64,000 bases of DNA from an uncultured Candidatus Saccharibacteria bacterium (GCA_964494105.1 CAZBQI010000004.1:15810-79809); one strand, 5' to 3'. Counted from the stretch's first letter, positions 4,852 through 64,000 are shown. The notes: generated by a model not told the origin, from the letters alone. Made by a program: numbers and translations.

Positions 4852-6489
4852 ATGACGAAAACGATTGATTTAGAAATTGATAACTCCACCGCAGTTGCAA
4901 GGGCATTTGAAATAATCCCTGGCGCAGCTGCTTGGTTGTTTTTAGTGTCGCCGATTTTCTTAAGCTTGGTTGAGCCGGTTTGGGTTGCTTATGTAATTAT
5001 TGCCTACGATTTGCTTTGGCTTAGCAAGTCTTTTGGACTTAGCTATCGACTGATTTGGGGGTATCGAAGGCTTAAGCAAACCACAGCCATTAATTGGAAT
5101 CATCGCTTAGACGACTTAAACAACCCGCAAGTAGCTATCGAGCGCATTGACAGGCGGTTGCAGAACGGACGAATTCCCCGCGCAACGGCACAGTCTCTTA
5201 GTAAATATCAACAACAACTAAAGCAGATAGTTGATAGTAAGGTCGATCTTATTCAGCCGAGCGATTTAATTCACGTGGTAATTGTGGCCCTTTACAACGA
5301 AGGTCTCGACATTTTGGAACCAACAATCAAGAGCCTTATAAAATCAAACTACGATCCACAAAAAATCTGGGTATTCGTGGCTTACGAAGAACGCGGTGGG
5401 AGTGACACCGAGAAGAATGCAAATTATTTAATCAAGGAATATGGCGACAAGTTCGGACATGCTCAAGCAGTCAAGCACCCGGGTGATACTAAGGGCGAAA
5501 TTAAAGGCAAGGGAAGCAATATTACTTTTACGGGGCGTAGAATTGCCGCTATTGTCAGGCAGCGAAAACTAAAGCCTGAAAACTTTATCGTTACTACGCT
5601 AGATAGTGACAACCGTCCACATCAAAATTACTTTGCATATTTGAGTTTTGTTTATGCCACTACCGCCGATAGGATTATGAATTCTTATCAACCGGTACCA
5701 ATGTTTTATAACAATATATGGGACGTGCCGGCACCCATGCGCATAATTGCTAGTAGTAATACCTTCTGGATGATAATGGAAATGATGCGCCCGCATCGAT
5801 TGCGTAACTTTTCATCTCATGCCCAGAGTTTGCAAACCCTAATCGATACTGACTTTTGGAGTACAAGAACAATTGTCGAGGATGGTCACCAGTATTGGAG
5901 AACTTACTATCGTTATAATGGCAATCACAAGGTTATCCCGCTGTATATGCCGGTTTATCAAGATGCCGTTTTGGCGAAAGGCTATATCCGAACCTTTAAA
6001 GCTCAATTTATTCAGCTAAGGCGGTGGGCTTGGGGTGTGTCGGATGTGCAATACGTCTGGCAACAAAACCGCAAACACAAAGACATTAAATGGTTGGATA
6101 AAAATATTAAGTTTCTTCGGCTATTTGAAGGCCACTTTAGTTGGGCAACAGCCCCATTAATTCTCATGTTTGCCGCCTGGTTACCGCTATTATTAAATCC
6201 GAACTTTAGCGACCAAGTGCTGGCTCACCAGCTACCGGTCATAGCTAGTCGCATCCAGTTAATCGCTATGTTTGGAGTAATCATTACCATCCTAATTAGT
6301 TTAATTTCGTTGCCACCTCGGCCCAAGCACTATAAGCCACATCGTTCACTATTTATGATTGTCCAATGGTTTCTATTGCCGATAACCAGCATTTTGTTTA
6401 CTTCGTTTGCTGCCTTAAACGCTCAAACTCGCTTAATGCTTGGCCGCTATCTAGAGGAATTTGATGTTACAGAAAAGGCTGTAAAGTAA
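4852..6489 (+). CDS. Membrane-embedded family-2 glycosyltransferase (processive, cellulose/chitin-synthase-like)
   Basis: ALYNEG motif, a DSD (DxD) motif, and QLRRW (the QxxRW processivity motif), plus N- and C-terminal hydrophobic helices. Confidence 0.7.
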   Translation: MTKTIDLEIDNSTAVARAFEIIPGAAAWLFLVSPIFLSLVEPVWVAYVIIAYDLLWLSKSFGLSYRLIWGYRRLKQTTAINWNHRLDDLNNPQVAIERIDRRLQNGRIPRATAQSLSKYQQQLKQIVDSKVDLIQPSDLIHVVIVALYNEGLDILEPTIKSLIKSNYDPQKIWVFVAYEERGGSDTEKNANYLIKEYGDKFGHAQAVKHPGDTKGEIKGKGSNITFTGRRIAAIVRQRKLKPENFIVTTLDSDNRPHQNYFAYLSFVYATTADRIMNSYQPVPMFYNNIWDVPAPMRIIASSNTFWMIMEMMRPHRLRNFSSHAQSLQTLIDTDFWSTRTIVEDGHQYWRTYYRYNGNHKVIPLYMPVYQDAVLAKGYIRTFKAQFIQLRRWAWGVSDVQYVWQQNRKHKDIKWLDKNIKFLRLFEGHFSWATAPLILMFAAWLPLLLNPNFSDQVLAHQLPVIASRIQLIAMFGVIITILISLISLPPRPKHYKPHRSLFMIVQWFLLPITSILFTSFAALNAQTRLMLGRYLEEFDVTEKAVK

Positions 6490-12500: not shown

Positions 12501-12760
12501 AGCACCGCATCCGGCCGTTCGCGCCTAATTATCTTCTCTACGGATACCGCCGTGATTGGTTCGATGTAGGTTTTGTCGGCCATTTCCGGGTCAGTCATGA
12601 TTGTGGCGGGGTTAGAGTTTACCAATATTACTTCATAGCCTTCTTCGCGCAGAGCTCGGCACGCTTGGGTACCTGAGTAGTCAAATTCACAACCCTGGCC
12701 AATGACAATTGGTCCCGAACCAATAATGAGAATCTTTTTTATATCTTTACGCTTAGGCAT
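9515..12760 (-). CDS. carB: Carbamoyl-phosphate synthase large subunit
   Basis: 1081 aa with duplicated ATP-grasp halves and an MGS-like C-terminus. Overlaps carA by 8 nt. Confidence 0.95.
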
Positions 12761-13913
12761 TTGTATTTACCTTGGCTCGTTTAATATTTTCTACAAACTG
12801 CTCAAACAGATAAAACGAATCATGTGGGCCGGGCGCAGCTTCCGGATGATACTGCACGCTAAAGGCCGGGAAGCGAGTAGAGCGGATACCTTCGCAGGTT
12901 TGATCATTCAGGTTAATGTGAGTTGGCTTAATGTCATTTGGCAGTTTCTTTTGGTTAATGGCAAAGCCGTGGTTTTGAGAAGTAATCTCAATTTTGCCAC
13001 TGGCTAAGTTTTTGACAGGGTGGTTCGCGCCGTGATGTCCAAACTTAAGTTTGTATGTCTTGGCGCCGAGTGCGGATGCCAGCATTTGATGCCCAAGGCA
13101 AATACCAAATAATTGAATGTTCATCTCGAGGAGACTTTTTGTTGTGTTGATTACATATTTAACCGCTGCCGGATCACCAGGTCCATTAGCAAGAAATATG
13201 CCATCCGGTTTTTCTGAAAGAATCTCCTTTAGGTTACTGGTGGGTGGCATGATGGTCAATTTGCATCCTAGTTTTTCGAAAGACCGAAGAATATTGTGCT
13301 TTACGCCGGTATCAAGCACAACAATGTGATACTTGCCTCGCCTGTTCCATTGGTATTTTTTAGTCACCGCTACTTCACGAACCAAATCGCTACCACTCAT
13401 AGATTGTGACTTAAGCTTGGTAATGGCCGGCTTTATGAGGCGTTTGTCTAAAACTATGGCGCCTTGGGTGGCCCCAAGCCTACGAATCTGTAAAGTCAGC
13501 GCCCTGGTGTCGATGCCCTCAATACCGGTAACCTTATTCTTACTAAGAAAACTGGCCAAATCTGTGGTGGCGCGGTAGTTCGAGATAGCTCGCGAAAGCT
13601 CCTTCACAATGAAACCGCTCAAATACACTTTGTCAGATTCGTTATCTAAATCGTTAATGCCGTAATTTCCAATTAACGGGTAGGTCATGCAGACCAATTG
13701 ACCCCTATATGATGGGTCGGTGAGCACTTCCTGGTAGCCACTCATGGCGGTATTAAAAACCACCTCGCCTGAGGTGGTTGATTTACTGGAAATGTCGCCA
13801 AATGCTTTTCCCGAAAAGCAAGTGCCGTTAGCTAGCACTAGGTAGGCTGTTTTTGTATCAGCTATCTTTGACTCCTCCCAGACTCTTGATACTTCAATGT
13901 ATGATACTCTCAC
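12753..13913 (-). CDS. carA: Carbamoyl-phosphate synthase small subunit (glutamine amidotransferase)
   Basis: 386 aa with a CPSase small-chain N-domain and the class-I GATase catalytic Cys region (GICLGHQ). Confidence 0.95.
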
Positions 13914-17799: not shown

Positions 17800-20580
17800 A
17801 TGAATAGAAAAACAGGCTCAAAAAATTCTCCATACGTAAAATCAACGCTCTGGCCGGTGTTATTATTGCTGTTAGCATTGTTTACCGTTGTCGGGGTTAG
17901 TGCTCAGAGTGGCGTGTTGTTTACGGTTTATGACGACAGTGTTCAAGCGGTTAAACTAGTAGTAGGCCCTCGTGGACCCGCTGGAGTAGCCGGAGCTAAT
18001 GGCGCAAATGGCCTGAATGGACTAAACGGCACCATCGGTAAAGACGGTGCAAGCGGAGCTAACGGAGCTAACGGAGCTGCAGGTGCTACTGGTGCCCAAG
18101 GTGTTCCAGGTAGCAACGACTGCATCAGTGGCATTTGTGTCTCCCGCCAAGTTAATACCCCTGGCACCCAAGAAACAGGCAACATAAATATCGATGGTGC
18201 AATTCTAGCTGATAGCCTGAATGTTACTACGGTTACAGCTACAACTCTAGCTGGTAATGGCTCAGGACTAACCTCGCTTAATGCCAGCGCCCTAGGCAGT
18301 GGTACAGTTTCAGATTCCAGACTGAGCGCTAATGTGGCTTTATTAAATGCATCTAACAGCTTTAGTGTTGGTCAAACAATCTTGTCTGGTGCAGCTGGCA
18401 CAACAGGTCTTATTGTAAAAGGCGCTGCTTCACAAACAGCTAACCTGTTTGAAATTCAAAATTCGACTGGATCAGCATTAGCTTACATAAGCTCCAGTGG
18501 AGATATATTTGCCAACAGATATATTTATGCGTCGTCGCAGCTTTACACAGATAGACTTACAGGTTATTCGGCACCGTACGTAACGCTTCAAAATACTGGA
18601 GGCCAAGATACTAACTTCATCCTCGGAACTTCGACCGGTACAAAGATCGGCACTGGAACTAGCCAGAAACTAGGATTTTGGAATGCTACCCCAATAGTAC
18701 AGCCTATCGCTAGTACTTCTTTAAACGCATTATTAGAAACAACTGGGCTTAGAACTGCAGCCGCTACTACAGATCCATCAATTATTATTAAGGGCATAAG
18801 CTCTCAAACAGGTAATCTAATGGAATGGCAGAACTCAGCTGCAACAACAAAGGCATACATTGATGCATCTGGAAACCTCGGCTTCGATGCAAACCAAGTT
18901 CGGGGCATTTACTGGGACGGTCCGACGTTTGCCTCCCTAATGATGAACGGAGTGAATGGCGTTGTCGTTACCCCTTACAGTGCCGGTTATGCAGGTATGA
19001 CTATCCAAGGCCGAGCCGCACAAACCGCCAACCTCCAAGAATGGCAGAACTCAGCTGGCTCGGCGCTAATAGCTGTCAATTCGGCAGGGCGCCTTACTTG
19101 GGGGGCTGATGGGCATGCGCAATCGTTTTTTGTAGATTCCAATCACCGATTCTGGTTCAACAATGACCCAGGCTATACAGGTATGTACATCCAGGCTAGC
19201 GGTGTTCAGGGACAGATAGTTGGAAACCAAGGGCTACTATTTACAAACCAAACCCATGCCGTATCTGTTGCTGTTATGGGAGTGTTAGGACAGACTTTAG
19301 ATCTTCAGCAATGGCAGAACTCGGCTGGGACCAAACTTGCTAGCGTGACTTCAGCTGGCCGGATATATGCCGGAGATAGCTCCACAACTACCTATTCATA
19401 CATTGCACCTGATGGCTCAATTGGAATGAGAAGTGCTGGTAATGAATGGGCGTTTACCTACGCTTCTACTGGCGTAAACCTAAATACAGCCATAGGTGCG
19501 TCAGGCTTTATGCCGGGGGGTGTTGGTACAACTCCCGGAAGGCTAGATACAGGCGGCGGCGGGTTGTCATTATCTGAGAGGTTTCAAGATGTCTATATTC
19601 GGAACTTTAGCCCCGGCTTTACAGTAGCGCAGTTTGGTACGGCCAGCGGTAGTACTGTTGCACAACTACTTACACCAGTGGCCTCAGGAAAGGGATTAGT
19701 TATCAGGGCTAATGCGACAACCCCTGGGAATCTACAGGAATGGCAAAATTCGGCAGGCACAGTATTGTCGCGCATAACCGCGGCAGGCGATCTCTACACA
19801 CCAGCAGGGTCTGTAATTGCTCTTGGCTCCCAGTATCTCTGGAATTCAAATGGAATTAAATACAACGTAGACGCAGGTACCGCCCATACGTTTTTTGTTG
19901 GTGGCACCGAAGTCATGCGAGTTGACAGTACTACTAATGTTGGGATAGGTGACGACACATCTCCTGATGCAAAACTTGACGTCTCCAACACCAGCACGGC
20001 CGGGGCCGTCTTGCAGCTTACCAACAGTGCCGGTACGTGTGACCACACCCCGACTGCCGGTGCCGAAACCGTCAGCTGTAGCTCCGACGCTCGCCTCAAA
20101 TCCAACATTACCGATGCAGCCAGTGTGCTCAGCGAAATCAATGGCCTTAAAATTCACGATTACACCGTAATTGCTAGTGGACAGCAAACAACCGGACTGA
20201 TTGCGCAAGAGGTAATAAACACCAACCCCGAAATGGTCCACATGGGTGAAGATGGCTACTACAAAGTTGATAGCTACAATTCATGGAAAATACTCAAAGG
20301 TATACAGGAGCTCAGCACCAACGCCGATGACCTGCAAACCACATTTACTAGCGCTCTAGAAAAAGCTAACGGTGATATTTCAACAACTAACGACATCCTC
20401 TCTGCACTTGGCTTGCGAGTAGACGACCTGTCGGACAAGCTAGAGGAATTTGCCACAAGGTTAAGCGAACACGACGACCGGCTTAATGCGCAAGACACTA
20501 AGATTCAGTCGCTCGAAGCAGAGATCCAAGCTCTTAAACAGCAGTTCAGCACCGGTTCGGCACCGACCACTAGCAACTAA
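17800..20580 (+). CDS. Secreted collagen-triple-helix-repeat / tail-fibre-like protein with a C-terminal S74-type intramolecular chaperone (autoproteolytic) domain and coiled-coil tail
   Basis: Signal peptide (LLLLLALFTVVGVSAQS), then ~17 Gly-X-Y triplets (GPRGPAGVAGANGANGLNGLNG...). Five internal repeats of the form N/DLxEWQNSAG follow. SSDARLKSNITDA...LKIHDYT matches the S74 intramolecular-chaperone domain of phage tail spikes. The C-terminal ~100 aa are heptad-like. Confidence 0.7.
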   Translation: MNRKTGSKNSPYVKSTLWPVLLLLLALFTVVGVSAQSGVLFTVYDDSVQAVKLVVGPRGPAGVAGANGANGLNGLNGTIGKDGASGANGANGAAGATGAQGVPGSNDCISGICVSRQVNTPGTQETGNINIDGAILADSLNVTTVTATTLAGNGSGLTSLNASALGSGTVSDSRLSANVALLNASNSFSVGQTILSGAAGTTGLIVKGAASQTANLFEIQNSTGSALAYISSSGDIFANRYIYASSQLYTDRLTGYSAPYVTLQNTGGQDTNFILGTSTGTKIGTGTSQKLGFWNATPIVQPIASTSLNALLETTGLRTAAATTDPSIIIKGISSQTGNLMEWQNSAATTKAYIDASGNLGFDANQVRGIYWDGPTFASLMMNGVNGVVVTPYSAGYAGMTIQGRAAQTANLQEWQNSAGSALIAVNSAGRLTWGADGHAQSFFVDSNHRFWFNNDPGYTGMYIQASGVQGQIVGNQGLLFTNQTHAVSVAVMGVLGQTLDLQQWQNSAGTKLASVTSAGRIYAGDSSTTTYSYIAPDGSIGMRSAGNEWAFTYASTGVNLNTAIGASGFMPGGVGTTPGRLDTGGGGLSLSERFQDVYIRNFSPGFTVAQFGTASGSTVAQLLTPVASGKGLVIRANATTPGNLQEWQNSAGTVLSRITAAGDLYTPAGSVIALGSQYLWNSNGIKYNVDAGTAHTFFVGGTEVMRVDSTTNVGIGDDTSPDAKLDVSNTSTAGAVLQLTNSAGTCDHTPTAGAETVSCSSDARLKSNITDAASVLSEINGLKIHDYTVIASGQQTTGLIAQEVINTNPEMVHMGEDGYYKVDSYNSWKILKGIQELSTNADDLQTTFTSALEKANGDISTTNDILSALGLRVDDLSDKLEEFATRLSEHDDRLNAQDTKIQSLEAEIQALKQQFSTGSAPTTSN

Positions 20581-36874: not shown

Positions 36875-38449
36875 TTACTCTTCGAGCACGCGATATACTT
36901 CTTGGAGGGAAGTAATTCCCTTAATGACTTTCAGTACTGCTTCTTGAAAAATCGTAACCATACCTTCGCTAACAGCTAGTTCATGAATCCTTTCGGTAGT
37001 AGTTTCCGCGGTTCCACCGCCAATAAATTTCTCCATAGCTTGAGTCATAAGCAATTGTTCGGCAACCATGGTGCGTCCTTTGTAGCCGATATCGTTGCAA
37101 GTTTTACAACCTTTAGCTCTGTAAAGTTCAATATCTGTAACATTTATTTGTTCATCTTTTGCTAAGTTGGCCAGAGTCGTTTGTATTTTCTGAACCTCTT
37201 CGGTCGTTGGTTTATAAGCCTCTTTGCAGGTTTCGCACAGCTTGCGTAGCAGACGTTGCGCCATAATTAAGCGTACCGACGAGGCCAATAGTGGATTCTG
37301 TCCAATCATATCCATCATTCGGCTAACAGCGGCGGCGGCTGATGAGGCATGGAAAGTCGAAAGCACCAGGTGGCCGGTAAGCGCCGCCTGCAAGGCTGTT
37401 TTCGCAGTATCCGCATCACGAATTTCTCCAAGCATTATGATGTCAGGGTCTTCGCGTAATACGCTTCTAAATTTATCAGCAAAAGACTCGCCGTCAATTG
37501 AATAGACAGGTATCTGGGCGACCCCCTTTAGCTCGTATTCGACCGGATCTTCAAGCGTAATAATCTTTACATCAGGACCGTTTAGGCGGTTTAGGATGGC
37601 GTATTGTGTAGAAGTTTTGCCTGAACCAGTTGGACCAACCATCAGCACCATGCCATGCGGGTGAGTAATGAGATCAATAATCACCTCAGACTGTTTCTTG
37701 GATAATCCGGCTTGATCTAAATTCAAATACTGAACGTCCAGGTTGAAAATTCTGACTACAATATCGGTACCGTGAAGTGTTGGTATTGTCTCTAGTCGCA
37801 TATCTACTTTTTCCAGTTTGCCGTCTTTTCCTTCGAGGACCTCCGAAATACGACCAGTTTGAGCGTAGCCGGCGTTCCATTTGATCCCGCCTCGCGTTTG
37901 TATATCTGTAAGTAGGACTTGGTATTTATCGTAATCGATTGTTGTTATTGGCTGAAGGACGCCATCAATTCGATAACGAATCACAACGTTCATATCGCCG
38001 GGTTCGATATGAATATCTGAAGCAGCGTGGCTAAAGGCTTGTTGAGCCATCGTTGCAAACAAGTCTTTTTGAGCAGCAGTTGCGATTTGGTCTTGTTCGG
38101 ATAAACGTTTGAAAGCAAATGGATCTTCAGGGTGAGTGCGCTCGAAAAATTCCTCGTAAAGCAGTTGGTAGCCACTCTCGGAAATTAACACGGTCTTTAT
38201 ATTGACTTGTGGCAGTGTCTCTTTTAGCTTGTCTAACGAAGAGCGCTTGGTGTTTTGGGTGAAACCAAAAGTCATGCTGATAGGATCATGAAGAAGGGGT
38301 ATGACGTGCAGTTTATCGAGCAGAGTTGAGTCGATTTGCACGCCCCCGTAATCGGGATGGGCGTTGCGAGTATCGAGATATCCGCACTTTAATATCTTTG
38401 CCCTGGTTGATGTTCTTTGTTCTTCTTTTTCGCGAACTCTAGGATCCAT
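36875..38449 (-). CDS. pilB: Type IV pilus assembly / type II secretion ATPase (GspE/PilB family)
   Basis: Walker A in LMVGPTGSGKTST, Asp and His boxes, and the C-terminal tetracysteine motif (CETC...CKTC). Confidence 0.85.
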   Translation of the reverse strand: MDPRVREKEEQRTSTRAKILKCGYLDTRNAHPDYGGVQIDSTLLDKLHVIPLLHDPISMTFGFTQNTKRSSLDKLKETLPQVNIKTVLISESGYQLLYEEFFERTHPEDPFAFKRLSEQDQIATAAQKDLFATMAQQAFSHAASDIHIEPGDMNVVIRYRIDGVLQPITTIDYDKYQVLLTDIQTRGGIKWNAGYAQTGRISEVLEGKDGKLEKVDMRLETIPTLHGTDIVVRIFNLDVQYLNLDQAGLSKKQSEVIIDLITHPHGMVLMVGPTGSGKTSTQYAILNRLNGPDVKIITLEDPVEYELKGVAQIPVYSIDGESFADKFRSVLREDPDIIMLGEIRDADTAKTALQAALTGHLVLSTFHASSAAAAVSRMMDMIGQNPLLASSVRLIMAQRLLRKLCETCKEAYKPTTEEVQKIQTTLANLAKDEQINVTDIELYRAKGCKTCNDIGYKGRTMVAEQLLMTQAMEKFIGGGTAETTTERIHELAVSEGMVTIFQEAVLKVIKGITSLQEVYRVLEE

Positions 38450-55280: not shown

Positions 55281-57778
55281 TGAAGATCTCGGTTAATTGG
55301 ATAAAACAATTCACAGATATTAATGGTACGGTTGATGAGCTTGTTGAAAGAATTGGCAAACAGCTTGGTGAGGTTGAACGGGTAATAGATCTTGGTGAGC
55401 GCTATCAGGGAGTAGTGGTTGCCAAAGTTGTGACGTGCGAGAAACATCCGGATGCCGATAAGCTGAGTATATGTATGATTGACGATGGTGGTGCAACAAA
55501 GACAGTGGAGCGCAACCAGCAAGGTTTGGTGCAGGTTGTCTGCGGGGCGCCAAATGTTAAAGCAGGCCTACTGGTTGCTTGGATTCCGCCCGGAGCAATT
55601 GTACCAAGCAGCTATGATGAAGAGCAGTTTAAATTAGAGGTACGCCCACTGCGCGGTGTTAATAGTAACGGCATGCTAGCTAGTAGTAGTGAGTTAGCTA
55701 TAAGCGATGATCACGACGGTATATTGGAGATTGATAAACCGGCAAAACCCGGGGATTCATTTGCAAAACTGTACGAGCTAGACGACTACATTATAGAGAT
55801 AGAGAACAAAATGTTCACCCATAGACCGGATTGCTTTGGTATCTTGGGTGTTGCGCGTGAGATTGCCGGGATAGAAAACATTTCATTTACATCTCCTGAT
55901 TGGTACCAAGAGGCATTGCCAGTAAAGATATCCACTGAACATACTTTGAGTGTAAATGTTGTGAATGAAATTCCTGACTTGGTTAGGCGGTTTATGGTTG
56001 TCCCGATGAGTAACATTGCTATTAAGAATTCACCCATTATTATGCAGAGCTATCTGCGTCGGCTTGGTATGAAATCTGTAAATAATGTTGTAGATATTAC
56101 AAACTTTGTGATGCTACTAACTGGTCAGCCGCTTCATGCGTTTGATTATGACAAGGCAGCTGCTCTAGATGGCTCCGCATCAGCCACCTTAGTGGTTCGT
56201 CATCCTAAAAAAGCCGAAAAAATTAGTTTGTTGAACGGCAAAACCATAGAGCCGCATGAAGACGCCATTATGATAGCCACGAAAACACACTTGGTTGGTG
56301 TGGGTGGTGTTATGGGCGGAACCGACATAGAGATTGATACCAGCACTAAGAACATTATCCTCGAGGTAGCTAATTTTGATATGTATTCTGTGCGCAAGAG
56401 TAGTATGGTGCATGGCTTATTTACCGATGCGGTAACTCGCTTTAGCAAAGGACAATCACCATTGCAGAACGAACAGGTCTTAGCCTATTCAGCCAAGATG
56501 CTGGGTGAATTAGGCGGGGCACAAGTAGCCGGCGATATTATTGATAACCATAAAAATCTACCACTGCCTGCGACAGTACAGGTGAGAGTGGAATTTATAA
56601 ATAGCCGACTAGGACTTAAGCTAACTGAATTAGAAATCAAGAAGCTGCTTGAGAATGTTGAGTTTAAGGTTGCCGTTGATGACGACCTTCTAAAAATTGC
56701 CGTGCCATTTTGGCGAATGGATATTGAGATACCCGAAGATGTAGTCGAAGAGGTAGGGCGTCTATATGGCTATGACAAGTTAGCGCCGTGGCTTCCAATG
56801 CGCGATTTAACACCGGCGCCACGGGGTCAGCTACTCGAACTTAAGAGCAGAGTTCGTAGTATCTTAGCGCAGTCAGGGGCTAATGAATTGTTAACCCATA
56901 GTTTTGTGCATGGTGATTTGTTTGAGAAGACCGGTCAAAATAAAGATGAAGCCTATCAGTTAAACAATGCTCTTAGCCCGGATCTGCAATATTATCGATT
57001 AACTTTGACTCCCAGTCTTCTAAGCAAAGTGCACCTAAATATTAAGGCTAATTTTGATGAATTCGCGTTATTTGAAATTAGCAAAACTCACGATAAAACC
57101 CATCTTGAAAAGTCTGGAAAGTTGCCAGAGGAAATGCAAAAGGTGGCATTTGTTTATTCGAGTAATGGTAAAGAATTCAACGGCGCACCATACTACCAGG
57201 CAAAGGCAATACTAGATTTTTTGGGCAAGAAGCTAGGACTTGAATTAGAATATACTGCAGTTACTGATGAAACAACAAACAACTTAACTGCTCCGTTTAA
57301 CATTGATCGATCGGCCTACGTAACTGACAAAAAAAGCGGGACTTTTTTGGGTATTATTGGCGAGTACAGGGCTAGCGTCAGGAAGGCTTTAAAACTACCG
57401 CGCCAGATTGCTGGATTTGAGATCGGTACAGAAGGCTTGATGAGTGCAATAGATGGCTCCAGTAGGTATCGCGTATTATCACGCTTCCCAAGCACTCACC
57501 AGGACATTAGTTTTAAATTGGCGTCGTCGGTTACTTACAAAGAGTTAGCAGACGTTATTTTAGCAACTCTTAATACAGCCAGGGAGAGCAAGCAGTATGA
57601 CTTTAGGCTATCAGCGCTAGATATTTACAGAAACGAAAGCAACCAAAGCCATAAACATATAGCTTTCCATGTTGAGCTTTCGCATCCAGAAAGGACGCTG
57701 GTTACTGACGAGATGAATGAGTTGCTAGCGACGATTGCTCATAATGCTAGTCAAGTGCTCAAAGCAGAGCGCCTATAA
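55280..57778 (+). CDS. pheT: Phenylalanyl-tRNA synthetase beta subunit
   Basis: tRNA-binding (EMAP-like) N-domain, B3/B4, B5 and C-terminal domains. Overlaps pheS by 1 nt. Confidence 0.9.
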   Translation: MKISVNWIKQFTDINGTVDELVERIGKQLGEVERVIDLGERYQGVVVAKVVTCEKHPDADKLSICMIDDGGATKTVERNQQGLVQVVCGAPNVKAGLLVAWIPPGAIVPSSYDEEQFKLEVRPLRGVNSNGMLASSSELAISDDHDGILEIDKPAKPGDSFAKLYELDDYIIEIENKMFTHRPDCFGILGVAREIAGIENISFTSPDWYQEALPVKISTEHTLSVNVVNEIPDLVRRFMVVPMSNIAIKNSPIIMQSYLRRLGMKSVNNVVDITNFVMLLTGQPLHAFDYDKAAALDGSASATLVVRHPKKAEKISLLNGKTIEPHEDAIMIATKTHLVGVGGVMGGTDIEIDTSTKNIILEVANFDMYSVRKSSMVHGLFTDAVTRFSKGQSPLQNEQVLAYSAKMLGELGGAQVAGDIIDNHKNLPLPATVQVRVEFINSRLGLKLTELEIKKLLENVEFKVAVDDDLLKIAVPFWRMDIEIPEDVVEEVGRLYGYDKLAPWLPMRDLTPAPRGQLLELKSRVRSILAQSGANELLTHSFVHGDLFEKTGQNKDEAYQLNNALSPDLQYYRLTLTPSLLSKVHLNIKANFDEFALFEISKTHDKTHLEKSGKLPEEMQKVAFVYSSNGKEFNGAPYYQAKAILDFLGKKLGLELEYTAVTDETTNNLTAPFNIDRSAYVTDKKSGTFLGIIGEYRASVRKALKLPRQIAGFEIGTEGLMSAIDGSSRYRVLSRFPSTHQDISFKLASSVTYKELADVILATLNTARESKQYDFRLSALDIYRNESNQSHKHIAFHVELSHPERTLVTDEMNELLATIAHNASQVLKAERL

Positions 57779-57831
57779 TCAGATATAAAACAGCGTACAA
57801 ACCGCAACCACTTTGGTATACTAAATAGCAG

Positions 57832-58281
57832 ATGGATCAACCAGAAGGCAGTCCCAATTTCATTCCTGTACCTGCTCCTGTGGAGAGTGCTGAACCCACG
57901 TCGGAACAATCAATTCCCAATCAGGCAGAGGCTGCTAGTGCCCCAGAGGTATCCGCCAATAAGCAAGTAGAGAAGTCCCCCGAGCGGGGAGCGAATATCA
58001 ATCAGAAACAGGCGGGCGTCGGTAGTGGAGTCAGTCTACCGGCGGTTCAGGCACCTGTAGTGCAGCCAACATCTCAACAAGCAGATGATGATAACGACGA
58101 CACCCCATTAATAGCTGACGATGTAGATGTTATTGAAATGGAATGGGTTAATAAAGCTAAGGAGATAATCAAGAACACCCGTAAGGACCCCCATGCTCAA
58201 GAACAAGCTGTTGAAAAACTCCAGATAGATTACTTGAAAAAGCGATATGGCAAAGACGTAAAAAGCTCGCGCGGAAGCTAA
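57832..58281 (+). CDS. Hypothetical acidic protein (disordered N-half, helical C-half)
   Basis: ORF only. It sits immediately upstream of the T4CP-like ATPase, with an 8-nt gap. Confidence 0.35.
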   Translation: MDQPEGSPNFIPVPAPVESAEPTSEQSIPNQAEAASAPEVSANKQVEKSPERGANINQKQAGVGSGVSLPAVQAPVVQPTSQQADDDNDDTPLIADDVDVIEMEWVNKAKEIIKNTRKDPHAQEQAVEKLQIDYLKKRYGKDVKSSRGS

Positions 58282-58289
58282 ATCGTAAT

Positions 58290-61200
58290 ATGGGTGGCTT
58301 AATCACAATAATCATTTTCTTTCTTGTTTTAGCATCAGCTTTTTTGGTAGTGGGGTTTTTCGTCTGGCGCAATATACTGCGTTTTGCAAAAGGGGTAGAG
58401 CGAGGAATAAAAATGGTTCCACTCTTAATTCATCTGCCTCCACCAAGCGATGATGTTGAGGTTGGCACAAGAGATGTGCGTGATGTTATACAAGAGAAAA
58501 TATCACAAGCGGAGGTTTTGTATAATCTTATAGCGGGAACTGCGAAAAAAGGCTTTAAAAGCCGTTTCTATGGTCAGCGTCATATCTCGTTTGAAATTGT
58601 CGCAACGGGCGGGGTAATACGCTTCTATGTAGCAGTCCCGGTCGCCCTTGAGTCAGTAGTAAATCAGGCCGTGTTAACTGCATACCCGGGTGCCCAATTA
58701 GAACAGGTAGAAGATCATAATATCTTTAGTCCAACAGGCAAGATTAGTGGCACAATAGGTGGCGAGATTGTGCTTAAGCACGACTACTCGTATCCGATAG
58801 CGACATTTACAGAGCTAAAGCGGGATGCAATGCAAGCTATGATTACTGCGCTAACTTCGCTGGGTCAGGGTGATGGAGCTGCTATTCAAATACTGATTAG
58901 GCCGGCCTTTAGCGGATGGACAAAAGCCAGTGAATCTTTAGTCGAAAAAAAGAAGAAGCATAAAGGCAAAAAAGGCAGCGTTTTACAGTGGAAAGGATTA
59001 GCTGAGGCGTTATGGAAGCCACCGGAAGTAAATGAAAAATCCCATGAAGAAAAACCACTTGGCTCGCTTGAACAATCTGTAGTAGAGGCAATTGAGCAGA
59101 AGACTAAGCACCCTGGATATGAAACAATGATTCGAATAGTCGCGTCATCTTCTACGGCCGCACAGTCTCAGGCGATTCAGCGAAATATTGCGTCTGCCTT
59201 CTCGTTGTTTGACTCACCTGGCCTGAACGGATTTAAATTTGAAGAAGCCAAAGATATCGAAAGTTTTGTTACTGCGTTCATTTTTCGATTCTTCCCGCCT
59301 GAGGCACGATCGTCAATATTAAATAGTATTGAACTGGCGACATTATTACACTTACCGGATGACCAATTCACACATACATCACAATTGCAGAGGCAGTACT
59401 CCAAACAGGTAGATGGTCCGAGTAATCTCCCCGACAAAGGTAGCTTAATCGGATGGAATAGTTACAGGGGCGTAAAAAAAGAGATTCGTTTGACTGAGGA
59501 TGATCGGCGTCGTCACCTTTATATCCTGGGTCAGACTGGTACGGGTAAATCAACCGTTCTAACTAATCTAATCTATCAGGACATGCTCGAGGGTAAAGGC
59601 TTGGCATTTATTGATCCTCACGGGGATGAGGCCGAGAAGTTAATGAGTATGATTCCTAAAGAGCGCACTGAAGATGTTATCTATTTTAACCCAGGGGATA
59701 TGCAATTTCCCTTAGGTTTAAACATGTTCGAGTATGACTTACCAGAGCAAAAAGACTTCCTTATTCAGGAAGCAATCAATATGTTATATCGCCTATATGA
59801 CCCTCAACACCAAGGGATTATTGGTCCTCGGTATGAGCATTGGTTTAGAAACGCAGCACTTACCCTGATGAGCGATCCCGCCGGCGCAACGTTTATTGAG
59901 ATTCCAAAAATATTTACCGATAAGCAGTATCAGCGTGACAAGATGAAATTCGTAACTGATCCGACTGTCCTGGACTTCTGGAACAAAGAAATGGCCCAAA
60001 CGAGCGATTATCACAAGAGCGAAATTCTTGGTTGGTTTGTATCCAAATTCGGCGCCTTTATGTCGAATGAAATGATGCGAAATATCATTGGTCAAACGAA
60101 AAGCTCGCTTGATCTGAGAGATATCATGGATAGCGGAAAAATACTGATAGTTAACTTAAGCAAAGGTAGGGTTGGGGAGCTCAACTCGATGTTGCTCGGA
60201 ATGATCTTTGTCATGAAGTTTGGTGCGGCCGCAATGAGTAGAGCTAATGTACCGGAAGCGGAACGAAAAGACTTCACACTCTACGTAGACGAATTCCAAA
60301 ACTTCTCAACTGATACTTTTGCAGATATATTATCTGAGGCACGTAAGTACCGACTAAGCTTAGTGGTTGCGAATCAGTTTATTGGCCAGCTCAGTGAGGA
60401 AATTCGAGATGCGGTTTTTGGAAACGTCGGTACTATGATGATTTCGCGCTGTGGTGCCAGCGACGCAGATTTCTTGGTTAAGCAATTTTCTCCAACTTTC
60501 GATACCCGTGATCTAGTGAACTTACCGAACGGGGAGTGGGTAACTCGTCTGTTGATTGGTGGTCTGCCCAGTCAGCCATTCACACTAAGAGGCATTCCGC
60601 CCGTTCAGGTTTCGAACCCAAAGCTTGGTATCGCATTAAAGCAGTTGTCGGCAGCAAAATATGGCCGACCACAAGCACAAGTTCAGGCTGAAATATTTAA
60701 GCGACTTGAAACAAAGCCCGCTCCGTCACCTTTTGGTCAGCCACCAAATATTGGGGCACAAAATCGGACGATGCCCAACGCGATGGCCAGCAGGCCTCAA
60801 TTGCCAGCTAGGCCTCCCCAATTAACGACAGGATCCGGCGGCCTACCCACGGCCACACCCACTCAGAGCGGATCATCATTTCTTGATGAGTGGCTAGCGA
60901 AAAGGCGCCAGACTACCCCCGGAGCGCCACAACAAGGCGCATTAGGGGTGCCTAGAGTGCCTCAACCCATGCCGGGTAATTCACTTCCTGCTGCTCAGGC
61001 GGCGCCTTCTCCTTTCCAGGCACCACCGCTACCGGTGAAACCTATAAATCCCCAAATAGCACCTAATCCAGCAATAAAGGGCCAGTCAAGTGAACAAACC
61101 AATGTAAATGCTAAGGCTGTTGTTGAGGAGGTGGGCGCACATAAATTACTCGATCCCCACCAGGAAAGTCGCATTCGAACAAAGCCAACTAGCCTAAAGA

Positions 61201-61712
61201 CAGTCGATGGCAGTCAAAAAGTAGCCGGAAAGCCTTCTGCGTCAGTTTTGCCCAAGCAACAAAAAGGTATACATACGCCTCGTCCTGGCGAGAGCATACT
61301 CCCTGATAAGAGCATTGATTATGAAGAGAGCTCATCAGCCATTCCAAGTAAAAATGTAGATTTAGAACAAGCTCATCACGAACTACCTAAAATAATTAAA
61401 GAGTCGTCAAAGAGATTTGAATATCAAAATACTGCAGGCGATAACGGTGGTGATTCCCAGGCTACCGTCGAAGAGATCGTGCCTGGCAAATCGAGTACTA
61501 ACCTAAATCAAGAAATCAACCGAAAGGTAGTAGATTTAAAAAAGGAAAGTGCAAAGGCTGCCAAATTATCCGAAGCCAATAGTAGGAAGGAAAAGAAAAT
61601 AAGCTCGGCTTCCGAAGGTAAGTCGAATATCCCACATCTTATGCCAGGTGAAATCTATATTGACGAGGATGGCATTATTCACCAGGCAACAGAGCAGATA
61701 AGGAAGAGCTAG
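58290..61712 (+). CDS. Membrane-anchored FtsK/HerA/VirD4-superfamily P-loop ATPase (type IV coupling-protein-like) with a ~450-aa Pro/Gln/Ala-rich disordered C-terminal tail
   Basis: N-terminal TM helix, Walker A (ILGQTGTGKST), Walker B-like VDEFQNF, and a TraG/TraD C-terminal-like motif (VVANQFIGQL). Residues ~700-1140 are low-complexity. Confidence 0.65.
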   Translation: MGGLITIIIFFLVLASAFLVVGFFVWRNILRFAKGVERGIKMVPLLIHLPPPSDDVEVGTRDVRDVIQEKISQAEVLYNLIAGTAKKGFKSRFYGQRHISFEIVATGGVIRFYVAVPVALESVVNQAVLTAYPGAQLEQVEDHNIFSPTGKISGTIGGEIVLKHDYSYPIATFTELKRDAMQAMITALTSLGQGDGAAIQILIRPAFSGWTKASESLVEKKKKHKGKKGSVLQWKGLAEALWKPPEVNEKSHEEKPLGSLEQSVVEAIEQKTKHPGYETMIRIVASSSTAAQSQAIQRNIASAFSLFDSPGLNGFKFEEAKDIESFVTAFIFRFFPPEARSSILNSIELATLLHLPDDQFTHTSQLQRQYSKQVDGPSNLPDKGSLIGWNSYRGVKKEIRLTEDDRRRHLYILGQTGTGKSTVLTNLIYQDMLEGKGLAFIDPHGDEAEKLMSMIPKERTEDVIYFNPGDMQFPLGLNMFEYDLPEQKDFLIQEAINMLYRLYDPQHQGIIGPRYEHWFRNAALTLMSDPAGATFIEIPKIFTDKQYQRDKMKFVTDPTVLDFWNKEMAQTSDYHKSEILGWFVSKFGAFMSNEMMRNIIGQTKSSLDLRDIMDSGKILIVNLSKGRVGELNSMLLGMIFVMKFGAAAMSRANVPEAERKDFTLYVDEFQNFSTDTFADILSEARKYRLSLVVANQFIGQLSEEIRDAVFGNVGTMMISRCGASDADFLVKQFSPTFDTRDLVNLPNGEWVTRLLIGGLPSQPFTLRGIPPVQVSNPKLGIALKQLSAAKYGRPQAQVQAEIFKRLETKPAPSPFGQPPNIGAQNRTMPNAMASRPQLPARPPQLTTGSGGLPTATPTQSGSSFLDEWLAKRRQTTPGAPQQGALGVPRVPQPMPGNSLPAAQAAPSPFQAPPLPVKPINPQIAPNPAIKGQSSEQTNVNAKAVVEEVGAHKLLDPHQESRIRTKPTSLKTVDGSQKVAGKPSASVLPKQQKGIHTPRPGESILPDKSIDYEESSSAIPSKNVDLEQAHHELPKIIKESSKRFEYQNTAGDNGGDSQATVEEIVPGKSSTNLNQEINRKVVDLKKESAKAAKLSEANSRKEKKISSASEGKSNIPHLMPGEIYIDEDGIIHQATEQIRKS

Positions 61713-61716
61713 GGTT

Positions 61717-62325
61717 CTAGCGAGCAACTAACTTGCGGGCAATAAATCCGGCGAATTCCCACACCAAACCGATAACTGCACCGATAACTGCACATACTAG
61801 AAATTCACTGCCTGAAAGATCGAATCCGTAAAAGCGAGCAAAGCCATAGAAAATGGCACCACCGATTAGTGCGCCCAGGGCAGCACCAAGGGTGACAGAT
61901 GGCCGAAATAGCGTTTTAGCTGAAATGTCACTGACTTTTTCGATAACAGGCTGATGAATTACCTTACTAAATACTCGGTCAGTTGGCTTTAGCTTTGCCT
62001 GGGTGTGTTTCATGGTTTGCTTGAAAGCTAGTTTTTTTTGCCTACCTTTGGTCGCCGGACTAAAGGTGTGCTGTTCCTTCTCGGCGCTATTGTGGTGTTT
62101 ATTCTCTTGGTGTTGAGCATAACGTTCTACTTGCTCCCGTGCTTCTTTAAGCTGTTCAGGTTGCTTATTTGCCTCACGCTCACCTTCTTTCTCTAACGAC
62201 TTAATTCGATCGCGTCCTTCTGGAGATTGAGTTGTTTCTTTGGGTTTAAATGATTCGTTATGTTGTGCCGGCAGTTTTTCACTCATCTTAGGCTCCTCCT
62301 GTATATTCGCGCTTAATAATGCCAA
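61717..62325 (-). CDS. Hypothetical protein with a Lys/Glu-rich N-half and two C-terminal TM helices
   Basis: ORF only. Overlaps the upstream LPXTG-protein gene by 38 nt. Confidence 0.35.
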   Translation of the reverse strand: MALLSANIQEEPKMSEKLPAQHNESFKPKETTQSPEGRDRIKSLEKEGEREANKQPEQLKEAREQVERYAQHQENKHHNSAEKEQHTFSPATKGRQKKLAFKQTMKHTQAKLKPTDRVFSKVIHQPVIEKVSDISAKTLFRPSVTLGAALGALIGGAIFYGFARFYGFDLSGSEFLVCAVIGAVIGLVWEFAGFIARKLVAR

Positions 62326-63583
62326 TTTCCTTAACTAACTGGCGGTTGCGCAAGAAAAAGTAAGATACTAATATTACGAAACCAGTTGTCAGTGCAATAT
62401 TCATACTAACCCCCGTATTTGGTAGTTCCGCTGAAGTTTCTTCGATAACCTTTGGAACGGGCTTATTTATGCAGACTTTTGTTCGTGATTCACCATAAGC
62501 ATTTTCTAAGCAGCCATCAAACGAGAACGGCATAGATGAGGATGCCGGGGTAGTTGGCATAGGGTTCTTTATGTTTACCTTAAAGGTTTTTGCGACAGTT
62601 TCGCCTTGCTTGACGCTTATTGCAGGCCAGGTAATTTCGTTGCCTGTTAACTTGCCCCCAGATAAGTCGCTGATATCGGCGTACTCTAAAATATCTGTGA
62701 CGTTCTCTTTCACTATGAAGTTGCGTATTACAACGTTACTTGGGTTCCTTACGAACAGTGTGTATTGAAGTGTTTCACCTGCTTGAACTGTTGAATTATT
62801 TGCCTCTAAATATAGGGGATCATCCTTGGCTTTACTTAGGTTAGCTACTTTCTTAGATAGAATGATACATTCCGGTCCACCCGAGCCTGTGCCGTCACAC
62901 ACCGGGGGCGGGGGCGTAGTCGTAGGTGGAGGAGTGGGCGGAGGAGTGGGCGGAGGCGGTGTATTTGTGCATGACTTATTGCCCCCAAGTCGGTAGTTGG
63001 CTAGAGCGTCTTGTGGCCATTGGTAGTTTGCATCGCCGTATATGGATTTAGCCCGTAGTTGACCAAGTAAATCAACTTGCCAATAGCAATCCGGCAGACC
63101 TACAGAAATCTTGTGCCTGCCAGGACCATACATCCCGCCGGCAGAGCCAAAAAACTTTTGTGCCGACAAGGGCTGTCCCGAGGCATTGGGCAGTTTCCAT
63201 ACGGCCAATGTGACGGGCTTACTGCAGTTAGGATGATTAGTAACAACTACTGTTGCCGACGCAGTGGTGCCGGTGGCATTGACCTTAATGCCGTTGTTTC
63301 CGGGTCCGTTAACGATTGAAATTTCACATCCAGGAGTAGATGCGCTTTCAGGATCAAGCTGATTTGACTGAGTTGCGTTCGTGCGTTCAGCCGGAACGAT
63401 AATTGAAAAGAACTGTAAACCCATTGCTAGGACTGCAAATACTACTACTAGTTTTCTGGTGGCATTTTCTCGACTTAGTCGTTTGCCATAAAAACTCAGT
63501 TGGTTTAGTAACTGAGGACTAAAAGGCAGATTAGATACTATCTTTCGAAACATTTTTATTTGTACTTGTTTATGCTTTTTCAT
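62288..63583 (-). CDS. LPXTG-motif cell-wall-anchored surface protein (sortase substrate) with a Pro/Thr-rich linker
   Basis: N-terminal signal/TM segment, a TPPPPTPPPTPPPTTTPPPP linker, and a C-terminal LPNTG followed by a hydrophobic helix and a basic tail (RNRQ). Confidence 0.7.
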   Translation of the reverse strand: MKKHKQVQIKMFRKIVSNLPFSPQLLNQLSFYGKRLSRENATRKLVVVFAVLAMGLQFFSIIVPAERTNATQSNQLDPESASTPGCEISIVNGPGNNGIKVNATGTTASATVVVTNHPNCSKPVTLAVWKLPNASGQPLSAQKFFGSAGGMYGPGRHKISVGLPDCYWQVDLLGQLRAKSIYGDANYQWPQDALANYRLGGNKSCTNTPPPPTPPPTPPPTTTPPPPVCDGTGSGGPECIILSKKVANLSKAKDDPLYLEANNSTVQAGETLQYTLFVRNPSNVVIRNFIVKENVTDILEYADISDLSGGKLTGNEITWPAISVKQGETVAKTFKVNIKNPMPTTPASSSMPFSFDGCLENAYGESRTKVCINKPVPKVIEETSAELPNTGVSMNIALTTGFVILVSYFFLRNRQLVKEIGIIKREYTGGA

Positions 63584-63675
63584 TTAAGCACAAACGCTAT
63601 GGTAAGACAATAGTTGCGTGTCTGTCGTCAAGCTTGGTATAATAAGTGTAGATTTGAGAGGTGAAAGAGAAACCT

Positions 63676-64000
63676 ATGGCAAAAAAAGATCAGTATAGCG
63701 CTGGTCAAATTCAAGTATTAGAGGGCCTCGAACCGGTACGCAAGCGGCCAGGTATGTATATTGGTGGCACGGGAATTGATGGTCTTCACCACTTAATCTG
63801 GGAAGTCGTAGACAACGGTATTGATGAGGCGCTCGCAGGTCACGCAACTGCCGTAACTGTGGTACTTCAGGCAGATGGCGGTGTGTCAGTTGAAGACAAT
63901 GGGCGAGGAATACCAGTTGATAAAGTTAGTAAAACCGGCAAAAGTGGTTTAGAGACCGTATTAACTGTTTTGCACGCGGGTGGTAAGTTTGGCGGAGCTG
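63676..64000 (+). CDS. gyrB: DNA gyrase subunit B, N-terminal part; continues beyond the window
   Basis: [33 protein letters not shown]...[16 protein letters not shown] is the GyrB GHKL ATPase N-terminus. TGGTATAAT lies at about 63635. The frame is open to the window end. Confidence 0.9.

Follow-up and report, generated by a model that had tools for sequence, protein, structure and literature searches.

A DUF8128-Family ATPase with a Coupling-Protein-Like Motor and a Predicted VirB4-Like N-Terminal Domain Is Encoded with a Conserved Small Partner in Saccharimonadia

INTRODUCTION

Canonical type IV coupling proteins (T4CPs) such as TrwB of R388, VirD4, TraD, DotL, and Cag-beta consist of a Walker A/B nucleotide-binding domain with an all-alpha insert, an N-terminal membrane anchor, and a C-terminal extension that binds partners, and a small accessory gene is adjacent to them (trwA; cagZ). 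ATPases of the VirB4/TrwK family combine an N-terminal domain with a C-terminal ATPase. Here we describe an ATPase that resembles the former in this build and the latter in its overall layout. It is encoded in a 64,000-nt stretch of DNA from an uncultured Candidatus Saccharibacteria bacterium (GCA_964494105.1, CAZBQI010000004.1:15810-79809). This whole stretch is referred to as the window, coordinates are counted from its first letter, and the locus under study comprises positions 57832 to 63583.

Homologues of T4CPs are widespread in Patescibacteria: a survey counted 5,713 of them in 2,918 of 3,035 genomes (96%) and reported the patescibacterial type IV secretion system (T4SS) as derived from monoderm conjugation machinery (Quinonero-Coronel et al. 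2025; PMC12102498). The homologues from other classes (~850 aa) have, like the ATPase described here, a transmembrane (TM) helix, a DUF8128 domain, and an ATPase core, and mostly lie far from virB4. In Southlakia epibionticum ML1, the T4SS cluster SEML1_0006-0019, including the VirB4 protein SEML1_0008, is essential and, according to the authors, is devoid of recognisable coupling and relaxase proteins (PMC10633639).

An earlier note on the locus, made from the sequence alone, had described a stand-alone, membrane-anchored, coupling-protein-like ATPase of unclear role. The description is supported by the data presented below, and the role is less open than the note had stated, since the syntenic counterpart in S. 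epibionticum is called essential and distant full-length homologues are found in conjugation modules. Tentatively, we favor an exapted coupling-type ATPase that serves the essential patescibacterial T4SS.

RESULTS

The ATPase has coupling-protein-like sequence features

The four open reading frames (ORFs) of the locus are listed in Table 1. They were found where the earlier note had placed them, as were the Walker A and B motifs, the VVANQFIGQL motif, the single N-terminal TM helix of the ATPase, and the LPNTG motif of the surface protein. In the ATPase, Walker A reads GQTGTGKS (aa 414-421, 59529-59552) and Walker B reads LYVDEFQ (aa 664-670, 60279-60299), and VVANQFIGQL corresponds to aa 692-701 (60363-60392). 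Across 120 homologues, no variation of the catalytic residues was observed.

Table 1. Features of the locus and its downstream boundary, in window coordinates
Feature	Position	Strand	Basis
Small acidic partner, 149 aa, pI 4.6	57832..58281	+	ORF, hydropathy
DUF8128-family ATPase, VirD4/VirB4 superfamily, 1140 aa	58290..61712	+	ORF, profiles, structure model
N-terminal membrane anchor, hydrophobic helix within aa 1-30	58290..58379	+	Hydropathy, model
DUF8128 N-domain, aa 41-362, predicted alpha/beta fold	58410..59375	+	PF26449, separate model, Foldseek
T4CP-like nucleotide-binding domain, ~aa 380-810	59427..60719	+	Pfam, NCBIfam, PDB search, Foldseek
Low-complexity basic tail, aa 811-1140, pI 9.4	60720..61709	+	Composition
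Conserved tail motif SSFLDEWLAKRR	60873-60908	+	Conservation in homologues
Conserved C-terminal tail motif GEIYIDEDGIIH	61647-61682	+	Conservation in homologues
Convergent membrane protein, 202 aa as listed	61717..62325	-	ORF, hydropathy
LPXTG-type surface protein, 431 aa	62288..63583	-	ORF, Pfam, NCBIfam, hydropathy
gyrB start (conserved chromosomal boundary of the block)	63676..64000	+	Translation

The public entry for an identical protein (P0001, 1099 aa) lacks 41 residues and matches a start at Met42. With such a start, which affects positions 58290-58412, the TM helix would be lost. In homologues, residues 27-41 vary little, with a conserved basic stretch after the helix (R27, R31, K34, R38, K41), and the start at 58290 is therefore the better one. 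In the structural model, a single unbroken helix spans aa 2-40.

PF26449 (DUF8128), which has been precomputed for P0001 (100% identity) and for almost every listed homologue, lies between the TM helix and the ATPase domain and places the protein in the Pfam DUF8128 family. PF02534 (T4SS-DNA_transf; 27.4 bits, cutoff 20.1) and DUF87 (31.2, cutoff 23.2) passed their thresholds, and two further models, PF10412 (TrwB_AAD_bind; 19.6 versus 20.5) and PF12696 (TraG-D_C; 19.6 versus 22), ended just below theirs. The NCBIfam models for TraD, VirD4, and TrbC scored far under their cutoffs (for example, 39.8 versus 366), those for TraD and VirD4 matching around the P-loop only. AAA_10 was below its cutoff (E 0.015), and the Pfam model CagE_TrbE_VirB did not match the ATPase. 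Among solved structures (PDB), the closest sequence matches were TrwB (1.5e-7) and DotL (3.8e-7), followed by HerA. The PF02534 match and TrwB and DotL as best sequence matches are in line with a coupling-protein-like ATPase.

The protein could also be a housekeeping DNA translocase equivalent to FtsK/SpoIIIE that acts in chromosome segregation at division. It is membrane anchored, is a member of the FtsK-HerA superfamily, contains a region rich in Pro and Gln, and is encoded beside gyrBA; its counterpart in S. epibionticum, SEML1_0142, is essential and was assigned to the FtsK P-loop template e2iutB2 by structure-based annotation (PMC10633639). However, PF01580 (FtsK_SpoIIIE) matched the P-loop only (21 residues, E 0.023, below the cutoff), FtsK alpha and gamma domains were not detected in the ATPase, and VirB4, TrwB, and HerA ranked first in the comparisons. 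FtsK/SpoIIIE is thus not the best match in the profile comparison that the earlier note had proposed. Furthermore, a canonical FtsK, complete with 4TM, alpha, motor, and gamma domains, exists in S. epibionticum and is essential (SEML1_0096; PMC10633639). Given this protein and the P-loop-only profile match, we reject an FtsK replacement and consider an FtsK-equivalent function very unlikely.

A VirB4-like domain is predicted between the anchor and the motor

The earlier note had suggested modeling the ATPase core. The AlphaFold2 model of the ATPase (mean pLDDT 87) was confidently folded up to approximately aa 806. With the whole model as the Foldseek query, full-length TrwK/VirB4 was the top match (E 1.9e-15, ~900 aligned columns), followed by HerA, TrwB, Cag-beta, and DotL; for TrwB, the TM-score on the target was 0.60-0.66 over ~440 aligned columns. 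No FtsK chain was present among the 50 best matches. The model also contains a purely helical insert (~aa 486-600) inside the nucleotide-binding domain, between the strands at 463-466 and 618-622, which would correspond to the all-alpha domain inserted at this place in T4CPs.

When the N-domain was modeled alone (aa 41-362; pLDDT 84, pTM 0.83), the top 14 Foldseek matches against the PDB were all TrwK/VirB4 (probability 1.0, E 2e-6 to 3e-3), with TM-scores on the query of 0.44-0.53. P-loop ATPases other than TrwK/VirB4 were not listed among the N-domain matches. Since only VirB4/TrwK was matched, the N-domain appears to resemble the VirB4-specific N-terminal domain and not the motor. According to the models, the 320-aa stretch that separates the TM helix from the motor is a folded domain rather than a linker, and the ATPase combines a single TM anchor, a VirB4-like N-domain, and a VirD4-like motor.

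The ATPase differs from the known families on several points. In comparison to canonical coupling proteins, it has one TM helix instead of the usual two and the extra VirB4-NTD-like domain, so that the anchor would not lead directly into the nucleotide-binding domain. In addition, its gene lacks T4SS or relaxase linkage, which is found only for distant homologues on Bacillus plasmids and in phages. In contrast to VirB4/TrwK, which is the top family for the whole model and shares the predicted N-terminal fold, there is no similarity at the sequence level: the ATPase does not belong to the VirB4 sequence profiles, the family profile did not match the VirB4-like proteins gp155 of phage G and TcpF of a Bacillus plasmid (E > 0.05), and Saccharibacteria have a separate, genuine VirB4 in the T4SS cluster (SEML1_0008). 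HerA is characterized by a central domain together with an N-terminal HAS barrel and a NurA-type partner. The DUF87 and fold matches are shared with HerA, but the N-domain matches VirB4 and not HerA, and no Pfam match to NurA was obtained among the neighboring genes scanned.

The variable tail carries two conserved motifs

The earlier note had correctly described a disordered, low-complexity tail but had set it at 450 aa, or 40% of the protein. Since the model is confidently folded to approximately aa 806, we place the start of the tail at aa 811, and it comprises 330 aa, or 29% of the ATPase (P 12%, S 10%, A 9%, K 8%, Q 7%). Two short motifs stand out (Table 1). The first is SSFLDEWLAKRK-like and lies around aa 850, and the terminal one follows the pattern h-x-I-D-x-x-G-x-h. 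Loose patterns for the two motifs were found in 65 and 62, respectively, of 77 complete orthologues.

The orthologues range from 941 to 1967 aa in length, purely by tail expansion (L027, L033, L040, L062, and others), and most of them retain the terminal motif. In five homologues of 1,706-2,006 aa, no Pfam domain was detected outside the ATPase region. A 517-aa ORF downstream of the ATPase gene in locus L090 was considered as a detached tail and was ruled out, as it shows no similarity.

The ATPase gene is paired with a small upstream gene across Saccharimonadia

More than 7,900 homologues of the ATPase were found at E <= 1e-5; for those listed, identity is 54-76% and extends over at least the first ~810 residues. 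In a scan of one genome per species, at least 585 matches were confirmed and 80 loci were kept, with labels that are almost all Saccharibacteria or Saccharimonadia. A search with the N-domain yielded 1,337 cluster representatives at E <= 1e-3. These relatives fall into two tiers, one of orthologues of 941 to ~2,000 aa with variable tails and one of proteins of ~800-940 aa. Direct comparison of two proteins from the shorter tier with the ATPase gave 41-45% identity over aa 1-820, and both are without the tail; for one of the two, relatives carry the labels Parcubacteria, Kuenenbacteria, Buchananbacteria, and Kerfeldbacteria. We conclude that the ATPase is the Saccharimonadia orthologue of a Patescibacteria-wide DUF8128 family.

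The neighborhood in relatives, the examination of which the earlier note had recommended, revealed a conserved small gene upstream. Enough upstream sequence was available for 77 of the 80 species loci, and in 76 of them a partner homologue is located at most 115 nt upstream of the ATPase gene. In the window, the gap between the two genes is exactly the 8 nt given in the note (TAA stop of the partner at 58279-58281, ATG of the ATPase at 58290). In the partner, the N-terminal part is rich in Pro and looks disordered, and it is followed by a conserved C-terminal region of ~55 aa, which begins at aa 96 (nt 58117): DDVDVIEMEWVNKAKEIIKNTRKDPHAQEQAVEKLQIDYLKKRYGK. It has no TM helix according to hydropathy, belongs to no Pfam family, and was not found in fusions. 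The label "Txe/YoeB toxin" given to the partner by JGI is spurious (TIGR02116, 17 bits versus a cutoff of 51.8).

The partner is also kept in a lineage in which the ATPase is only 45% identical (profile E 1.2e-17). In three loci from other Patescibacteria lineages, an ATPase of ~850 aa is preceded by a protein of 167-182 aa with a disordered Pro/Glu-rich N terminus and a helical C terminus, like the partner. Sequence homology between the Saccharimonadia partner and the small upstream proteins of other classes was undetectable, the likeness being one of build only. The downstream genes in these three loci differ from those in Saccharimonadia.

An EW[VL]xK[AR]K-type motif is present both in the partner (IEMEWVNKAK, 58132-58158) and in the ATPase tail (LDEWLAKRR, 60882-60908). 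It might represent a shared docking helix or a coincidence.

Since the PheST-TrpRS-RmuC block upstream of the locus was present in only about one-fifth of the loci, the ATPase module is more stable than the wider synteny. Downstream, gyrBA appears to be equally fixed wherever the flanking genes could be read. In the Patescibacteria locus L089 (10594-14844), a 1416-aa FG-GAP/PT-HINT gene, which is polymorphic-toxin-like, is inserted after the ATPase gene and separates it from the two genes that directly follow the ATPase gene in two related loci.

The syntenic counterparts of the ATPase and its partner are called essential in S. epibionticum

In S. epibionticum ML1, the gene order is the same as in the window: Mg-chelatase-like gene, small membrane gene, partner, ATPase, convergent ~190-aa gene, convergent DUF11 gene, gyrB, gyrA, and DUF212 gene (PMC10633639 Tables S1 and S2). 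Published transposon sequencing (Tn-seq) data give calls for these genes at three time points as essential (ES), nonessential (NE), or GD (PMC10633639). SEML1_0142, the syntenic counterpart of the ATPase, was called ES/ES/ES with 9-11 transposon insertions tolerated, and SEML1_0141 (139 aa), the counterpart of the partner, was called GD/ES/ES with 0 insertions at every time point (PMC10633639 Table S1). The two convergent genes, SEML1_0143 (193 aa) and SEML1_0144 (DUF11), were NE (PMC10633639 Table S1). Further outward, calls were NE at all three time points for the Mg-chelatase-like SEML1_0138, NE/GD/GD for the small membrane protein SEML1_0140, ES/ES/ES for GyrB (SEML1_0145), GD/ES/ES for GyrA (SEML1_0146), and GD/ES/ES for the divergent PAP2 (DUF212-type) gene SEML1_0147 (PMC10633639). 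Of the genes that flank the ATPase gene, the small one upstream is thus the only partner that is almost always present and also co-essential.

The P-loop domain of SEML1_0142 extends from approximately aa 381 to 800, and the family was flagged as core and Patescibacteria enriched; the main text of that study does not discuss SEML1_0141 and SEML1_0142, for which the essential calls are listed only (PMC10633639). S. epibionticum has a paralogue, SEML1_0293 (921 aa; TrwB_AAD_bind E 3e-15), which was called NE (PMC10633639). Compared to T4CP homologues of the SEML1_0293 type, the window ATPase has a long tail, is SEML1_0142-like, and has a weak TrwB_AAD_bind score. The survey describes the T4CP homologue of ML1 as nonessential and possibly exapted (PMC12102498). 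Because SEML1_0142 was called essential by Tn-seq, this statement fits SEML1_0293 and not SEML1_0142.

Distant homologues are located in conjugation-type modules of Bacillus plasmids and phages

Outside Patescibacteria, PHROG 5156 (function unknown) matched aa 67-805 of the ATPase (E 4e-85), and collinear homologues with 20-24% identity were detected in 28 phage records, 26 of them Bacillus phages. The longest of these alignments (15 records) include the N-domain. In phage G, the homologue gp156 follows gp153 (TrbL_4, VirB6-like) and gp155 (P-loop_TraG/AAA_10, VirB4-like), and in phage CP-51 the homologue gp91 adjoins gp90, a Replic_Relax relaxase-family protein. A scan of IMG/VR viral contigs revealed no relatives.

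In CP-51 (L094, 3368-9343), the block around gp91 also encodes the actin-like segregation protein gp96 and the weakly T4SS-pilin-like gp97. It looks like a plasmid-style maintenance/transfer module in a lytic-type myophage genome.

A Tcp-type conjugation operon on the Bacillus licheniformis plasmid NZ_CP035190 begins with the gene for a homologue that is 25% identical to aa 86-771 of the ATPase (E 3e-49). It continues with genes for Replic_Relax, TcpC, TcpE, and an AAA_10 VirB4-like ATPase, with other small genes interspersed. The Bacillus subtilis plasmid NZ_OX419581 shows the same arrangement, with TcpD and TcpE. These plasmid homologues are annotated as "DUF87 domain-containing protein." The plasmid and phage homologues are collinear with the ATPase over the N-domain and the ATPase domain (profile E 1e-51 to 1e-55), and those on the Bacillus plasmids occupy the coupling-protein position. 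Transfer has been shown for pGIAK1, a plasmid from Bacillaceae whose gene content is similar (PMC3756968); its VirD4-like gene may belong to this family. In contrast to the Bacillus homologues, which belong to mobile elements and lie inside transfer modules, the window gene is chromosomal, isolated, and relaxase-less.

The convergent membrane and LPXTG genes are syntenic but dispensable neighbors

In agreement with the earlier note, the ATPase gene is convergent with the genes for a membrane protein and an LPXTG protein, both on the minus strand. The membrane protein is charged in its N-terminal part and has its two TM helices in the C-terminal part, and the stop codon of its gene lies 4 nt from that of the ATPase gene. 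As listed, with a TTG start at 62325, this ORF overlaps the LPXTG gene by 38 nt. Because the orthologues begin with "MSE...," the true start is most likely ATG 62286 (189 aa), which is just past the stop codon of the LPXTG gene.

The 431-aa protein comprises, in this order, an N-terminal hydrophobic segment (aa 41-66), a Cys-containing region, a Pro/Thr linker, a DUF11/CLIPPER domain, and LPNTG (aa 387-391, 62411-62425), after which a TM helix (~aa 392-411) and a basic RNRQ...K-rich end follow. With the motif, the helix, the basic tail, and the N-terminal hydrophobic segment, it shows the features of an LPXTG sortase substrate. The DUF11/CLIPPER match was borderline (24.5 bits versus a gathering cutoff of 24.6), and TIGR01167 was just under its cutoff (14.5 versus 15.9). 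An LPXTG-like motif is present in 53 of 67 orthologues, and most of the remaining ones have variants of the IPNTG or MPATG type.

At least 2.5 kb of downstream sequence was available for 63 loci. A homologue of the DUF11/LPXTG gene was found in 62 of them and one of the membrane gene in 58, always on the strand opposite to the ATPase gene; both were present in 58 loci, and one locus had neither. The membrane gene is absent in L001, L037, and L090, and the 45%-identity lineage has genes for two unrelated soluble proteins in place of the convergent pair. Thus, the two genes are syntenic in the class and were lost or replaced in some lineages.

This synteny, with both genes following the ATPase gene on the opposite strand in 58 of 63 loci, is what would be expected if the four genes formed one unit in which the ATPase powers export, assembly, or anchoring of the LPXTG/DUF11 protein via or together with the membrane protein. 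In line with such a unit, the genome annotation of S. epibionticum likens its DUF11 protein to isopeptide-forming fimbrial proteins (PMC10633639). However, the convergent genes are nonessential in that organism, whereas the ATPase is essential, and the ATPase-partner pair persists where the convergent genes are absent or replaced (L001, L037, L090/L091, and other classes). Being convergent, the membrane and LPXTG genes are not cotranscribed with the ATPase gene. Moreover, LPXTG proteins use Sec and sortase, and the equal synteny of gyrBA suggests that adjacency may only reflect a conservative genome. We consider a four-gene unit unlikely and conclude that the ATPase does not depend on the convergent surface-protein genes.

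The locus is part of a housekeeping chromosome

A Pfam scan of ORFs showed that the window is housekeeping chromosome of a Saccharimonadia bacterium. Among others, it encodes CarAB, ThrRS, ArgRS, an AddA-like helicase-nuclease, a ClpB-like ATPase, RmuC, TrpRS, PheST, transfer-messenger RNA (tmRNA), SmpB, IF3, MurT, and GatD, and the 57 kb upstream of the locus consist of housekeeping genes. The earlier note had seen no other T4SS genes, and indeed none were detected among the 39 window ORFs outside the locus that were scanned against Pfam, nor were relaxase or integrase genes; the sole secretion-type ATPase among these ORFs is a PilB-like T2SSE protein (36875-38449). GC content is uniform, and the locus matches its surroundings. 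Promoter and terminator scans of 57500-64000 gave no more sites than were counted in shuffled sequence.

The note had also pointed to the possibility of a T4SS just outside the window. None was found: the locus is followed by gyrB, in relatives the block continues with GyrB-GyrA-DUF212, an order shared with S. epibionticum, and the neighboring genes read in relatives contain neither T4SS nor relaxase genes.

These data bear on the possibility that the ATPase belongs to an integrated conjugative or mobilisable element as its ordinary coupling protein, or is what remains of such an element in decay. The T4CP-type profile matches and the homologues on Bacillus plasmids and phages would fit such an origin. 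However, the position between pheST/housekeeping genes and gyrBA is fixed in relatives with flanks read, the listed homologues are 54-76% identical, and no relaxase, integrase, or VirB gene was detected in the window. Moreover, the locus does not stand out in GC content, its catalytic motifs do not vary, and its syntenic counterpart in S. epibionticum is called essential. Together with the synteny, these last three points effectively rule out a mobile-element remnant, and we regard this origin as highly improbable. We conclude that the ATPase gene is chromosomal, vertically inherited, and fixed in position, with intact catalytic motifs.

Three further observations concern the window at large. 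A 926-aa protein (17800-20580, plus strand) combines collagen triple-helix repeats with a Peptidase_S74 (endosialidase-chaperone) domain at its C terminus; matches to several PHROG tail-fiber families were also obtained, and its gene is surrounded by housekeeping genes. It could be a phage-derived or phage-like surface fiber. The C-terminal part of PurD (26-493), trehalose-6-phosphate synthase and phosphatase (532-2846), and CarAB (9515-13913) are encoded as well. These biosynthetic genes exceed what is expected for host-dependent Saccharibacteria, which suggests a less reduced environmental lineage. A 545-aa ORF at 4852-6489 (plus strand) has no Pfam match.

DISCUSSION

We propose, with somewhat less than even confidence, that the DUF8128-family ATPase is an exapted coupling-type ATPase, a ring motor or receptor that serves the essential patescibacterial T4SS, with the small upstream protein as an adaptor and the tail used for docking. 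In such a model, the ATPase would assemble into a ring on the cytoplasmic side of the membrane and would use ATP to recruit or drive a macromolecular substrate in a coupling-protein-like manner. By analogy to CagZ, TrwA, and IcmSW, which serve their respective coupling proteins, the partner may act as an adaptor or regulator, and the tail motifs could be docking sites. The ATPase would then be the otherwise missing coupling ATPase of an essential, relaxase-less T4SS, encoded away from the cluster.

Several results weigh against this proposal. T4SS genes were not found near the ATPase gene in any of the 80 Saccharimonadia loci or the three loci of other lineages, and none of the Patescibacteria loci examined showed a physical or genetic link to a T4SS. 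The homologues from Bacillus and phages share only 20-25% identity with the ATPase and differ from it by their acidic tails and the lack of a TM helix. When the motor domain alone is considered, the nearest relatives outside Patescibacteria (32-38% identity) are orphan proteins on proteobacterial plasmids, outside T4SS clusters. In addition, the defence-system model mad8 matches the ATPase (E 6e-14); in a defence-system scan, mad8 and HerA were the only domain-level matches of the ATPase, and the three neighboring proteins had none. The orthology of SEML1_0142 is based on gene order, length, and annotation, without a sequence alignment, and essentiality in coculture gives no view of the process involved. 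Finally, we infer the oligomeric state, the substrate, and the binding of the partner.

The survey data point in the same direction. Only 148 of the 5,713 T4CP homologues lie near virB4, and VirB4 was found in 2,417 of 3,035 genomes (80%), fewer than encode T4CP homologues (PMC12102498). Since T4CP homologues are more widely distributed than VirB4 and are rarely near virB4, a role independent of the T4SS fits at least as well. The ATPase and its partner could thus be an exapted essential machine that no longer works with VirB-type components and performs another translocation or remodeling task at the membrane, for example, uptake or export of nucleic acids or proteins, or envelope biogenesis. 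The consistent separation from T4SS genes, the orphan relatives of the ATPase domain on proteobacterial plasmids, and the exaptation raised by the survey authors themselves are all in line with this explanation. Furthermore, SEML1_0142 was called ES already at the first time point, at which most T4SS genes were GD (PMC10633639). However, dnaA was also GD at that point, so the first call separates functional classes poorly, and the incompleteness of metagenome-assembled genomes inflates the apparent absence of VirB4. Moreover, the full-length homologues outside Patescibacteria are located in conjugation-type modules, and the same organisms have an essential T4SS without a recognised coupling protein. 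On balance, we see a T4SS-independent machine as a realistic possibility, with a probability of roughly one in three.

A more far-reaching form of the T4SS proposal is that DUF8128 ATPases constitute an unrecognised third lineage of T4SS-type motors, with a VirB4-like N-domain and a VirD4-like motor, common to Bacillus conjugative plasmids, phages, and Patescibacteria. In Patescibacteria, they would be the essential, chromosomal, missing coupling ATPase with a dedicated partner and would make a relaxase-less T4SS work for the epibiotic lifestyle, in import or export of host-derived macromolecules. We advance this as a speculative idea that is doubtful in its full extent.

Parts of the picture are already on record, namely, the Pfam DUF entry, the NCBI product names, the count in the 2025 survey, and the row in the Tn-seq table. 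Neither the VirB4-like N-domain nor the partner gene is described in the survey (PMC12102498). Together with the split into an essential orthologue and a dispensable paralogue and with the Bacillus homologues in the coupling position, they appear to be undescribed.

Saccharibacteria and other Patescibacteria are host dependent, and their essential T4SS reportedly has no recognisable coupling protein or relaxase, which puts its cargo and its mode of action in question. The DUF8128 family provides a concrete candidate for the missing motor or receptor of this T4SS, and S. epibionticum, being genetically tractable, allows a direct test of the hypothesis. Should the ATPase instead work independently of the T4SS, a conjugation ATPase would have been taken over for an essential housekeeping task. 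In addition, the predicted combination of a VirB4-like N-domain with a VirD4-like motor bears on the divergence of the two T4SS ATPase families.

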